Source of the DNA: a virus
Lineage: Duplodnaviria; Heunggongvirae; Uroviricota; Caudoviricetes
DNA: 4,182 nucleotides
Virus record (IMG/VR): IMGVR_UViG_2534681774_000009
Strand: one strand, 5' to 3'
Part shown: positions 1-4,182 of the stretch, in pieces
Layout of the letters: each line of letters opens with the position of its first letter
Numbering within the stretch: position 1 is the stretch's first letter
The notes under the pieces: generated by a model
What the model saw: the letters and a program-made list of their open reading frames with translations, nothing else
Database searches by the model: none
Told to the model about the DNA's origin: nothing
Translations under genes and position numbers: made by a program

Positions 1-93
1 GAACGCACACGACTGGAAGCATGGGAACGCTACAGCGTTCTGGTCAGCCGTGTGGATACGGCAAATCCTGAATGGCCACAAAAGCCTGAATAA
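1..93 (+). CDS. Tail fibre assembly protein (Tfa family), 3' end only; gene continues upstream of the window
   Basis: Frame 1 is open from position 1 to a TAA at 91-93 and translates [30 protein letters not shown]. This has the same C-terminal pattern (L..W..Y...V...DT....P..PE) as the minus-strand Tfa at 122-655 and as the lambda Tfa C-terminus recalled from memory. It is absent from the ORF track because no start codon lies inside the window. Confidence 0.7.
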
Positions 94-98
94 AAATT

Positions 99-118
99 AA
101 GGCCCGCTATCGGGCCTT
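99..118. terminator. Hairpin between the two converging tfa genes; likely intrinsic terminator, best oriented for the minus strand
   Basis: AAGGCCCG (99-106), loop CTAT, CGGGCCTT (111-118) forms a perfect 8-bp GC-rich stem. On the minus strand it is followed by AATTTTTATTC (complement of 91-98), a T-run. On the plus strand the downstream sequence GTCTCATT is only weakly T-rich. Confidence 0.55.
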
Positions 119-121
119 GTC

Positions 122-655
122 TCATTCAGGTTGTTCGGGAAATGTTACTGGCAGGCTGGAGGTGTCTGTAGATTCGACTTTCTGCGCATAGAGCATCCAC
201 TCAGTTAATTTTTGTTTATTCTCGTCGGAAATGATGCCCAGCCGTAGCTGTGAGTCCCATAGCTGGGTTTTATCCCTGACAAGTTGCAACAGGCTTTGCT
301 TTTCATTCTCTGCCTGCTGCCTCTGTTCCTCCTCGGTATAAGTTCGCTTTATCACTACGCCATCTTTGAACATCCATTTACCCGAAATATCAGCCCGGCG
401 ATTTGCTGTAATATCTGGAACCTCAACGACGCTTGCGCCTTCTGGATTAATTGCTGAAACATCCTTTTCAATACAAATAATAACGTCGTTGTGGTCATAG
501 ACCATTTTCAACGTATCAGGCTGAAAGTTCTTTTGTTCCTCATACCAGTTTTTCCCATCCTCTGTATAAAGCCATTTGATGTTAAATTGTTTCGTTAGCT
601 GGTATTGCTCTTTTGTTTTAGGGTTGCCAGCAGTAATATTTTTTAAGTGCATCAT
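122..655 (-). CDS. tfa: Tail fibre assembly protein (Tfa family)
   Basis: The 177-aa ORF starts MMHLKN and ends ...LTEWMLYAQKVESTDTSSLPVTFPEQPE, with an internal VPDITANRRADISGKWMFKDG segment typical of enterobacterial prophage Tfa proteins. A GGGGAG Shine-Dalgarno (complement of 665-670) sits 9 nt upstream of the ATG at 653-655. Only 2 nt separate it from the stop of the upstream fibre ORF, consistent with translational coupling. Confidence 0.85.
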   Translation of the reverse strand: MMHLKNITAGNPKTKEQYQLTKQFNIKWLYTEDGKNWYEEQKNFQPDTLKMVYDHNDVIICIEKDVSAINPEGASVVEVPDITANRRADISGKWMFKDGVVIKRTYTEEEQRQQAENEKQSLLQLVRDKTQLWDSQLRLGIISDENKQKLTEWMLYAQKVESTDTSSLPVTFPEQPE

Positions 656-657
656 AA

Positions 658-1806
658 TTAAGTACTCCCCGCGTTATACCACGTTCCATTAATGCAATAC
701 TGAATTGGCCTTGCCTGAGTTGTATCAATTAATTCATCACGATTCCCGTTAACTGAACCCGTAACGACATAACCTGACCTGTCAGACCAGCCGGGACCAT
801 TCCATGTCTGAACAGATGACAGACCGCCCAGGCGAATACCTGTAATAAACCTTGAGTTACATTCTGCCTGCGTATATGCACCAACATCCCCCGCAGAGGG
901 TTTGCGGGTTGTGGTGTAAAACTCTGACCAGTCAGCTTCAAAGCCATAACCATCACGCGCTGAACGATAAAAGATACCGCCGTTCTTATAATTCACGCGG
1001 AACTGTACAGCAGGGCAACTCCCCGCATTCATATTGAAGTGGAGGATTAATGTCGATGCGCCACTGATATTTGCGTTATAGACCCCGCTATTCCAGTTCC
1101 AACCAACAGCTTTATCATTTCCGACAGCGCTTCCTGTTTGCCCTAGAGCAAACGCACCTACATGACTTGCTTTTAATGTGATATCGGAGGAACCATCAAA
1201 AGCCACGCCACTTATTTTTCTGGCAGTTTGTAACTTTGTAGCCGTAGATGCATTACCGTTCAAACTACCATTGATGCCGCCATTAACATTGAGTCCATTA
1301 CCGATCGTAACAGCACCATTGGCGTTGTTAATGATAAGCGGCCTTAACCTATTATAGGTTCCTAGGCTGTTACCCGAATCGGTCAACATGAAGCATGTGC
1401 TTGAACCATCGTTTCGGATAAAGAATCCATAGTTGCCATAGGCAATGCGCAGACCATTCGCCGATTTGGAAATAATCTCGCCAGCGAATTTCGCATAGGA
1501 ACCAGTCCTCAAGACTAACTCTTCCTGAGCATCAGTTGTTCCTGTGCATAAGCGATAAACGTTATTCTCTATTGTTTCATGCCATATGCTTGCACCTGTG
1601 CTGGAGCGGAAACGTCGCAGATACATTTTTGCATCGTCAACAACTGACGTGAGCATGTCATGTTTATACTCACTTTGCGGCACGCCATTGCTATTGATTC
1701 CACCCCGAAGAACAGTGCCACCCGGCATAGGTAAAAATGCCATCTTCACCGAAGATCCAATCACCTGAATTAGTACCATTACCGGTTTCTTTATTCGGCG
1801 CAGCAC
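658..1806 (-). CDS. stf: Side tail fibre protein, C-terminal (distal) segment; the annotated start is probably not the real N-terminus
   Basis: Contains NGNASTATKLQTARKISGVAFDGSSDITL (a tail-fibre motif) and ends ...RPIQYCINGTWYNAGST, resembling the C-termini of Stf-type fibres as I recall them. It lies immediately upstream of tfa. Its first ~21 codons overlap ORF 1691-2611 in another frame (see findings). Confidence 0.75.
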   Translation of the reverse strand: MLRRIKKPVMVLIQVIGSSVKMAFLPMPGGTVLRGGINSNGVPQSEYKHDMLTSVVDDAKMYLRRFRSSTGASIWHETIENNVYRLCTGTTDAQEELVLRTGSYAKFAGEIISKSANGLRIAYGNYGFFIRNDGSSTCFMLTDSGNSLGTYNRLRPLIINNANGAVTIGNGLNVNGGINGSLNGNASTATKLQTARKISGVAFDGSSDITLKASHVGAFALGQTGSAVGNDKAVGWNWNSGVYNANISGASTLILHFNMNAGSCPAVQFRVNYKNGGIFYRSARDGYGFEADWSEFYTTTRKPSAGDVGAYTQAECNSRFITGIRLGGLSSVQTWNGPGWSDRSGYVVTGSVNGNRDELIDTTQARPIQYCINGTWYNAGST

Positions 1807-2611
1807 AATTTATCCGGATGCCTGGTCGTCTGTTAGGGTTATCGACACCATCTTTAAATATGTACCCATCAGTTAGTGTTGTGCCGTCATTTTTCGTATA
1901 TGTAAAGCGGATATGACGGCTTGTATGGCTACTAAAAATAAGATCGCTTTTAGTGGTAAGTAATGGAGCTGTCAGACCTCCTAATAATGTGCCTCCGGGT
2001 AGAGACAGCGCGCCAATGTTCTCTGGTGTCAACGAAATATCAGTAGTGCCATCGAAGGTTACTCCGTTGATTGTTCTGGCGGTCTGTAATTTAGTTGCTG
2101 TTGCAGCATTACCATTGAGGTTTCCAGAGCTATAGAAACCACGACCATTGCTAAAATCAATAATTATGTCGACAGCTATACATTCAGCTTTAGGGTTGGT
2201 TGCCCCCCATTTGTATGTGGTTTGTCCAACAATATAATCCGTTGTAGGGACAACAACAGAAAGCCCCTCCTCCACAAGAACGCATACTGGAAATGCTCCG
2301 CCTTCAATATAAAAAACTGAGCTAACTTCATCGTCTTTATTGCTCATCGCAATAGAATGAATCGCCCGTTCTGCATCCTGATAATGCCAGAACATCCCGT
2401 ATGCGTACCGCCCTCTGTCACTCCAACCAGCAGGCATCACAAAACCATTGAATTCGCAGTTGTTCATGCGATGTGCAGCTTGGCGCGGCGCAGTGGAAAT
2501 AATAACCCGAGAAGCAAGTTCACCATTGCTCGTTGCAGATCTCTTGATGACTACAGGATAGAATTTACCCTCTTCAGCTCCAGAAGGAGCATTGACTCTG
2601 GTGAATTTCAT
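1691..2611 (-). CDS. stf: Side tail fibre protein, middle segment
   Basis: The 306-aa ORF contains NLNGNAATATKLQTARTINGVTFDGTTDISL followed by LSLPGGTLLGGL. It is in the same frame as ORF 2627-3205, separated only by a TAG at 2627-2629 and five codons. The ATG at 2609-2611 is preceded by AAAAAAGGG with essentially zero spacing, a poor independent ribosome-binding site. Confidence 0.65.
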   Translation of the reverse strand: MKFTRVNAPSGAEEGKFYPVVIKRSATSNGELASRVIISTAPRQAAHRMNNCEFNGFVMPAGWSDRGRYAYGMFWHYQDAERAIHSIAMSNKDDEVSSVFYIEGGAFPVCVLVEEGLSVVVPTTDYIVGQTTYKWGATNPKAECIAVDIIIDFSNGRGFYSSGNLNGNAATATKLQTARTINGVTFDGTTDISLTPENIGALSLPGGTLLGGLTAPLLTTKSDLIFSSHTSRHIRFTYTKNDGTTLTDGYIFKDGVDNPNRRPGIRINCAAPNKETGNGTNSGDWIFGEDGIFTYAGWHCSSGWNQ

Positions 2612-2626
2612 CCCTTTTTTAAAGGT

Positions 2627-3205
2627 CTACTTCGGCTTTGCTGTAAACATCAATATTTTTTCTGTTAACGCTGCATCAGTTGGTTCTAATGCTCGGCATT
2701 TGCTATCTCCGGTAATCAGAAAGTTACCGTCAATGTCTAATCCGGCATATTTATTGGTGTTGGTATCAGATTGTAGATGTAACGTCAGCCATGAGCGGTT
2801 GCCACTCCTTATCTCTGAATAAATTCTGAAACGACTCCTCTGTACCCCAGCTGAATTATTCAGATAACCACTTACAATCCCTGACGCGGCTAAATCAGCG
2901 TCTGTTGAGTTAACAAGATTGATACCCTTAAATTGGGGGACGTCCGCAACACCTAATCCAAGATTAGTACGCCCTCCAGAGACGCTGGATGCACCTAATC
3001 CCCCATGAGTAATTGGTAAAATACCTTTTATGCCCAGAAGAGCATTTGATGAACCATCAAAGTCGATGGCGTTATCACTTTGGAGGTCAACTTGAAGCGA
3101 CCTTTTGGTTTTCAATTTCGTCGCGGTGTCGGCGTTCCCTGTCAGCGCCCCGGTGATCCCGCCGTTGAAAGTCTGGCATGCACTCCATGTGTTAGCCGTA
3201 CTCAA
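2627..3205 (-). CDS. stf: Side tail fibre protein, proximal variable segment (silent-copy S'v-like); frame is open upstream to 3283 through the crossover site
   Basis: The 192-aa ORF has GNADTATKLKTKR...IDFDGSS and ILPITHGGLGASSVSGGRTNLGLG near its N-terminus. The track start is a TTG at 3203-3205 with no convincing Shine-Dalgarno. The same frame stays open for 26 more codons upstream (EVSGVIISILNLGLRELGTSGEKIPL), crossing the recombination site, as expected for a cassette that must be fused to a constant 5' part by inversion. Confidence 0.65.
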   Translation of the reverse strand: MSTANTWSACQTFNGGITGALTGNADTATKLKTKRSLQVDLQSDNAIDFDGSSNALLGIKGILPITHGGLGASSVSGGRTNLGLGVADVPQFKGINLVNSTDADLAASGIVSGYLNNSAGVQRSRFRIYSEIRSGNRSWLTLHLQSDTNTNKYAGLDIDGNFLITGDSKCRALEPTDAALTEKILMFTAKPK

Positions 3206-3235
3206 CAGGGGGATCTTTTCACCGCTGGTACCGAG

Positions 3236-3252
3236 TTCTCTTAAACCAAGGT

Positions 3253-3261
<9 letters not shown>
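3236..3261. other. Site-specific recombination crossover site for a serine invertase (hix/gix/cix/pix-like)
   Basis: TTCTCTTAAACC-AA-GGTTTAGGATTG is an imperfect 26-bp dyad with the AAACC-NN-GGTTT core. It matches 19 of 26 positions of hixL (TTCTTGAAAACCAAGGTTTTTGATAA, from memory) and has the same central AA at 3248-3249. It sits exactly between the fibre cassette and the invertase gene and contains the invertase stop codon (3253-3255). Confidence 0.7.

Positions 3262-4182
<921 letters not shown>

Follow-up and report, generated by a model that had tools for sequence, protein, structure and literature searches.

The window, i.e., the whole stretch of DNA considered here, is the complete 4182-bp contig AIHE01000055.1 in the draft assembly GCA_000250295.2 of Escherichia coli DEC12E. 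Its sequence is that of the cin-proximal half of a phage-P1-type invertible C-segment, from a P1-like phage-plasmid (Table 1). At the left end, the contig breaks off within a U-type assembly gene that belongs to the segment's other half, and only the last codons of this gene are present. A hairpin sits between this gene and the convergent U′ assembly gene. It is terminator-like by consensus match only, and it is plausible that it serves as a terminator for the expressed fiber operon in either orientation. The intact U′ gene has a DNA identity of 93–95% to U′ of P1 and Mu. Beyond it lies the Sv′-type fiber cassette, where the draft annotation has separate fiber ORFs of 192, 306, and 242 aa, followed by a crossover site, the remainder of cin, and one end of an IS100.

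Table 1. Coordinates of the features in the 4182-bp window.
Feature	Position	Strand	Remarks
Convergent tail-fiber assembly gene (U type), 3′ end, 30 codons	1..93	+	Called gene, PF02413 Caudo_TAP
GC-rich hairpin AAGGCCCGATAGCGGGCCTT and T-run	99..118	-	8-pair stem, 6 GC pairs, tail AATTTTTATT
U′-type tail-fiber assembly/chaperone gene, intact, 177 aa	122..655	-	Caudo_TAP E=2e-36, profile 2-131/131
Sv′-type variable tail-fiber cassette	658..3258	-	866 sense codons once three single-base indels are repaired
Cassette as assembled, three ORFs	3205..2627, 2611..1691, 1806..658	-	
Two-frame overlap, 116 nt	1691..1806	-	Results from the frameshift at 1729
Extra base, T on the minus strand (A on the plus strand)	1729	-	ACCTATG vs. 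ACCATG in relatives
T5 run (plus-strand A5)	1733..1737	-	Same length in relatives; not the lesion
Second private indel, +1 base	2621..2623	-	Plus-strand AAA vs. AA; adjoins a T6 run
Third private indel, -1 base	2662..2663	-	Plus-strand CTG vs. CTTG; 1-2 nt from a T6 run
cix crossover site	3235..3258	-	Identical to P1 cixL; overlaps the cin stop codon
cin DNA-invertase gene, nucleotide 47 to stop	3253..3767	-	Residues 17-186 identical to P1 Cin
IS100 (IS21 family) right end and 3′ part of istB	3768..4182	-	IstB_IS21 profile match; contig ends inside

Two of the fiber ORFs overlap by 116 nt in adjacent minus-strand frames, which had been reported in a preliminary description of this DNA and is readily seen in the sequence. 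One of them (1691–2611) encodes 306 aa. The other (658–1806) encodes 382 aa from a GTG or 361 aa from the ATG at 1741–1743. The core idea of the preliminary description was that both belong to one fiber sequence in a silent cassette, interrupted by a one-base frameshift, and this agrees with the continuity of the sequence in its relatives. Pairwise alignment to three of them located exactly three indels within the fiber (1729, 2621–2623, and 2662/3). The contig has ACCTATG, TTTTTTAAAGG, and TTTTTTCTGTT at these positions, and the relatives have ACCATG, AAGG, and CTTG; read on the plus strand, the first of these differences is CATAGG in the contig vs. CATGG in the relatives. The indels at 2621 and 2662/3 are 41 nt apart and of opposite sign, so that 41 nt are read out of frame and a TAG at 2627–2629 is exposed. 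The ORFs on either side (3205..2627 and 2611..1691) share one frame, and the gap between them is only apparent, arising from the two indels. Relatives read TDAALTRKNIDVYSKAEVDLKKGMKFTRV across this upstream break (2621–2663). In them, the ATG at 2609–2611 with which the 306-aa ORF "starts" codes for an internal Met (KKGMKFTRV). That this start is an artifact made by the indels at 2621 and 2662/3 had been overlooked. Across the overlap site, the relatives read ...GDWIFGEDGIFTMPGGTVLRGG....

Once the three indels are repaired, 866 codons lie in one open frame, which begins within the cix site and ends at the stop at 658. Six relatives align to this frame without gaps, and its protein matches residues 402–1101 of the 1431-aa Sc-fused fiber WP_212483571.1 at 97% identity and with 0 gaps. 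As assembled, the three ORFs match successive, colinear stretches of the tail-fiber profile phrog_454. In a profile search, the repaired protein matched Gp34_trimer (E=2e-22), and gp37_C fell just under its cut-off. These family matches are colinear with full-length fibers, as expected of a tail fiber. With the ORFs colinear on phrog_454 and continuous in every relative, the overlap is more than chance. It is very probable indeed that ORFs 3205..2627, 2611..1691, and 1806..658 are fragments of one Sv′ cassette and that no mechanism lies behind the overlap. This confidence covers either origin of the indels, and the likelihood given below for genuine mutations is a sub-case of it rather than an addition to it.

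The break had been placed in the A5/T5 run itself. Dropping one base of the A5 at 1733–1737 does join the frames (computed as ...GEDGILPMPGGT...), but the run is unchanged with respect to the relatives, and the base that differs is at 1729, 4 nt away. The fused reading was held to look like genuine fiber sequence, and the relatives indeed have one continuous protein here. The true reading, however, is GEDGIFTMPGGT and not GEDGILPMPGGT, from which the proposed fusion departs by two residues (ILP vs. IFT). The element LSLPGGTLLGGL, which had been offered in support of the fusion, holds a substitution private to the contig, and the relatives have LSLSGGTLLGGL (LSLSGG) in its place.

The continuity of the cassette is general among its relatives. 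The closest of them, plasmid NZ_CP066033.1, is 97.7% identical over window positions 1–3770 and annotates a single 832-aa CDS where the window splits into three ORFs. In NZ_CP047013.1, the cassette is located at the other segment end and is fused to Sc as a 1431-aa tail fiber. By megablast, 20/20 complete E. coli genomes and 26/26 PLSDB plasmids have one base fewer than the query across 1640–1820, the counts taking in genomes and plasmids that contain this stretch. A gap-tolerant exact pattern matched one IMG/VR and two JGI/ENA metagenome contigs, all in the no-insertion form, and gave 0 matches over the GTDB species representatives. The reading at the site is likewise GEDGIFTMPGGTVLRGG / GIFTMPGG in ~24 database proteins of the same 90% clusters. 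The extra base at 1729 was found in none of these 20 genomes, 26 plasmids, 3 contigs, and ~24 proteins, and an exact-protein look-up placed the 306-aa ORF on AIHE01000055.1 alone. Whether homologs are continuous across the overlap was a check put forward in the preliminary description, and all of those examined read straight through (GEDGIFTMPGGTVLRGG). Among the genomes, plasmids, and proteins examined, there is no homolog with an end at 1691 and none with its start at the Met of 1741–1743.

Complete plasmids were found with the cassette adjoining the recombinase gene and also with the cassette fused to Sc. The dN/dS of the repaired window vs. its nearest relative is 0.16, and the cassette is therefore a working gene in the family, where it is actively inverted. 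Similar DNA is present in P1-like phage-plasmids of E. coli, E. fergusonii, and E. albertii, as well as in P1, P7, and D6. The fiber tip and U′ also resemble the DNA of Mu and D108.

A motif, NGNA(A/S)TATKLQTAR..(F)DG, is repeated at cassette residues ~40–52, 382–394, and 666–678. Similarity to differing relatives stops at or beside this repeated motif, including at window positions ~1179–1290, and different C-terminal tips are joined at it in different plasmids. The repeated motif looks like a point of module exchange. The other cassette of the same segment has ~300 nt in common with this one at 90% identity. Database records often show this long fiber gene broken up by indels. The same fiber is split elsewhere in other assemblies, as in P0028/P0020 (98,316-bp contig), with ...SNGELCFSGYYFH..., and further splits occur in P0003/P0011 and P0009 (...SEYKT, and MLRRIKKPAMVLIQ then GDWIFGEDGIFTMPGG). 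The accession prefixes STL/SPW/SQT/STO among these split-fiber records are presumably those of a long-read sequencing series.

Could the overlap be a switch? A slippage-dependent switch was one of three origins offered for it. The T5/A5 at 1733–1737 would let the ribosome or the RNA polymerase slip, so that both a truncated and a full-length fiber are made. The T5 run is 4 nt upstream of the lesion, and loss of one T restores the frame. No relative, however, is frameshifted at the site, and there would be nothing conserved to decode. The T5 of the window has the same length in six aligned relatives, in which it encodes part of G-I-F-T, and all of the proteins read GIFT. A +1 shift would be required, and in the zero frame ATTTTTA does not have the form of an X XXY YYZ heptamer. 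Appreciable transcriptional slippage is known from runs of ~8–9 or more, and five Ts are far below a slippage-prone length. Two further breaks exist upstream, and the cassette has neither a promoter nor an N-terminal part in its present orientation. Every homolog is in one frame across the site, unlike at a programmed ribosomal frameshift. There is also no run-length polymorphism, and the lesion is outside the run, unlike at a homopolymer contingency locus. We regard the slippage switch as extremely improbable, a judgment that is shared jointly by its version with run length as an on/off state. Real decay and sequencing error, the other two origins offered, both stay live.

The same region could also be read as two separate genes, one for a 306-aa protein and another for a 361/382-aa receptor-binding protein started at 1741–1743 or 1806. 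The draft annotation does split the ORFs (192, 306, and 242 aa), and an ATG exists at 1741–1743. In the relatives, however, that ATG is not in the reading frame and the region lies inside a single protein, and the ATG at 2609–2611 is an internal Met. Neither start is preceded by a convincing Shine-Dalgarno sequence at proper spacing, and the out-of-frame tails, ..TYAGWHCSSGWNQ and MAFLP.., are without counterpart in any homolog. Separate genes can practically be dismissed. A mosaic or recombination junction at the overlap was considered as well and rejected because the relatives are colinear and gap-free there.

The invertase gene next to the cassette has its own lesion. The IS100 starts at 3768 and cuts cin at nucleotide 46/47, such that the first 46 nt of cin are displaced. 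The IS100 part (415 nt) is 100% identical to the IS100 copy in NZ_CP066033.1. A single gap in the IS100 alignment was evaluated as a further indel and rejected, as the gap is the cin/IS100 junction itself. The missing 15 cin codons encode MLIGY[V/I]RVSTN[E/D]QNT. The catalytic nucleophile of serine invertases is a serine within this missing N-terminal stretch. The Resolvase profile is matched at positions 18–144 only in the remainder of cin, in which an HTH_7 domain is also present and no amino-acid change was found vs. P1 Cin. The enhancer annotated in P1 (cin nt 19–90) is split by the IS100, and only its distal part adjoins the segment. The annotated 180-aa "recombinase" (WP_000349552.1) opens with 10 IS-derived codons. 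The cin::IS100 junction is spanned by no plasmid or complete E. coli genome record in the collections searched.

An IS100 copy in NZ_CP066033.1 (12188–14058 of locus L001 from that plasmid) is ~3 kb from an intact cin, and its orientation is opposite to that of the window copy. A second insertion could account for the arrangement in DEC12E, as could an inversion of the lydA-darA region mediated by IS100.

Other hallmarks of an inversion segment are in place. A serine invertase gene adjoins the segment, though it is truncated by IS100. A crossover site is located at the boundary, with the fiber frame open through cix, and the join at the crossover site reads IQYLGLRELGTSGEK in the Sc-fused relative. 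Two convergent gene sets are present, with Sv′ and U′ on the minus strand and the Caudo_TAP 3′ end (1–93) on the plus strand. The window holds one cix-like site, and the second site is present in relatives. What the locus lacks is an intact cis-acting enhancer within the 5′ region of cin. It belongs by descent to the P1 C-segment / Mu G-segment class, although its switch is probably dead.

The cassette is on the cin side of cix. From the P1 annotation and the contig orientation, we infer that it is silent, parked without a promoter next to cin. The segment, of which the far end and the Sc gene lie outside the contig, is probably locked with the cassette silent because the IS100 has taken away the catalytic N-terminus of Cin and interrupted the cis-acting enhancer. 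In the Gin/Hin/Cin family, Fis-dependent enhancers act in cis. A host invertase acting in trans would be expected to invert this segment poorly.

We propose the following course of events. In the relatives, Cin flips the segment so that the cassette alternates between fusion to Sc and a parked position. The Sc-fused state gives an expressed fiber of ~1430 aa, and the parked state is promoterless, next to cin. In DEC12E, the cassette is in the parked position, and its frame is broken by three indels (+1 at 1729, +1 at 2621, and -1 at 2662/3) that none of the other sequences examined has, the first of which causes the 116-nt overlap. No phenotype is expected of the indels because the cassette is presumably unexpressed in its present orientation.

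The feature is of a known and ordinary kind, either a pseudogene or a sequencing error. On balance, we lean toward the latter, i.e., a base-calling or assembly error in a 2012 draft, over genuine mutations in a silent copy. Each of the three indels is 1–4 nt from a run of at least five identical bases, and in each case the run is unchanged (p ~2e-4 for random placement). Also on the side of error, two of the indels, 41 nt apart, have opposite signs. The A at 1729 was inserted ahead of the A5 run with three intervening bases, and the indels at 2621 and 2662/3 are +1 and -1 changes of 2-nt runs that flank T6 runs. The preliminary description had suggested a homopolymer sequencing error. An origin by error is still live, but the run itself would not have been miscounted. 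Flow-based (454 / Ion Torrent) errors are similar in that they are single-base indels 1–4 nt from runs of at least five, with the runs intact. Huse et al. described extension and incomplete-extension errors of adjacent bases. The operational definition of carry-forward allows at most two intervening bases (PMC2323236), and the 1729 insertion, with three, falls outside it. Flow-based errors thus differ from what is seen here in that the 1729 insertion is three bases before its run, not ≤2. A flow-based consensus error also requires a miscall that is systematic across reads. The internal repeats of the C-segment (1179–1485 and 3108–3259) were examined as a source of misassembly and rejected, as they include none of the three indels.

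Genuine pseudogenizing mutations approach an even chance without reaching it. Under this explanation, Sv′ is unexpressed, was permanently locked in the silent position after IS100 destroyed cin and the enhancer, and is decaying neutrally. The state of the locus fits it, with a silent copy beside a broken switch: cin has lost its catalytic N-terminus, the enhancer annotated in P1 at cin nt 19–90 is split, and the cassette is on the cin side of cix. No error is present in the 415 nt of IS100 in the contig, and the assembly is therefore not generally poor. The substitutions private to the contig copy also point this way, with five nonsynonymous vs. three synonymous over the 1981 nt that five or more relatives cover. 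Numbered by codon of the repaired cassette, the five are R28C (~3177), Q292H (~2383), A363V (~2171), S421P (~1998), and Y622C (~1394). S421P falls in the conserved LSLSGG motif, and two of the five changes are to Cys. All five amino-acid states are absent from ~30 related sequences. The private ratio of 5:3 is closer to the neutral expectation than to the dN/dS of the family, which suggests relaxed constraint on the contig copy or else consensus errors.

Other observations weigh against genuine mutation. The ratio of indels to substitutions in E. coli is roughly 1:10. Three indels to eight private substitutions is several-fold over this ratio (Poisson ~0.05). No indel alters a long run, yet all of them adjoin one. 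The remainder of cin is without amino-acid change, by which the lock looks recent, and the overall dN/dS is only 0.16. An unchanged cin remainder and a low overall dN/dS leave little time for neutral decay. Base-calling or assembly error is thus the origin that we favor, with modest confidence.

The main consequence is for annotation, in which one frameshifted Sv′ cassette should stand in place of the three "hypothetical / side tail fiber domain" ORFs, and an IS100-truncated cin in place of the 180-aa "recombinase" gene. If the lesions are errors, they illustrate how flow-type indel errors can mimic overlapping genes. If they are real, the plasmid-prophage has lost its host-range alternation together with one of its two receptor specificities. 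A lesion in a parked fiber cassette is an already known kind of thing, and real lesions would make this a small, unsurprising example of prophage decay. It is somewhat less likely than not that all of the indels are real and that a host-range switch was caught just after being frozen by IS100, its now permanently unexpressed cassette gathering frameshifts and unusual amino-acid changes while the expressed partner was kept. If true, the contig would record a moment in the natural loss of an invertible host-range module.

The best known counterpart of this locus is the C-segment of P1, a host-range inversion switch with sister systems in Mu (G/gin) and e14 (P/pin). The P1 annotation (NC_005856) runs cin, cixL, Sv′, and U′, followed by convergent U, Sv, cixR, and the constant Sc part. 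The contig has the same order of cin, cixL over the cin stop, promoterless Sv′, U′, and convergent U. Its cix is identical to P1 cixL, residues 17–186 of Cin are identical, and U′ plus the fiber tip (window positions 1–1156) are 93.5% identical to P1 DNA. The contig differs from P1 in the length of Sv′, which is ~2.6 kb vs. 1.56 kb, owing to an extra middle module of ~1.9 kb that is common to a subset of P1-like plasmids. It also differs in that cin and the enhancer are interrupted by IS100 and the cassette has three frameshifting indels. The P1-like phage-plasmids NZ_CP066033.1 and NZ_CP047013.1 and the Punavirus MH422554.1 are closer still, with a DNA identity of 97–98.5% in the cassette and the same module order. 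Unlike in the contig, the cassette in these phage-plasmids is one open frame, both orientations are found, and cin is intact.
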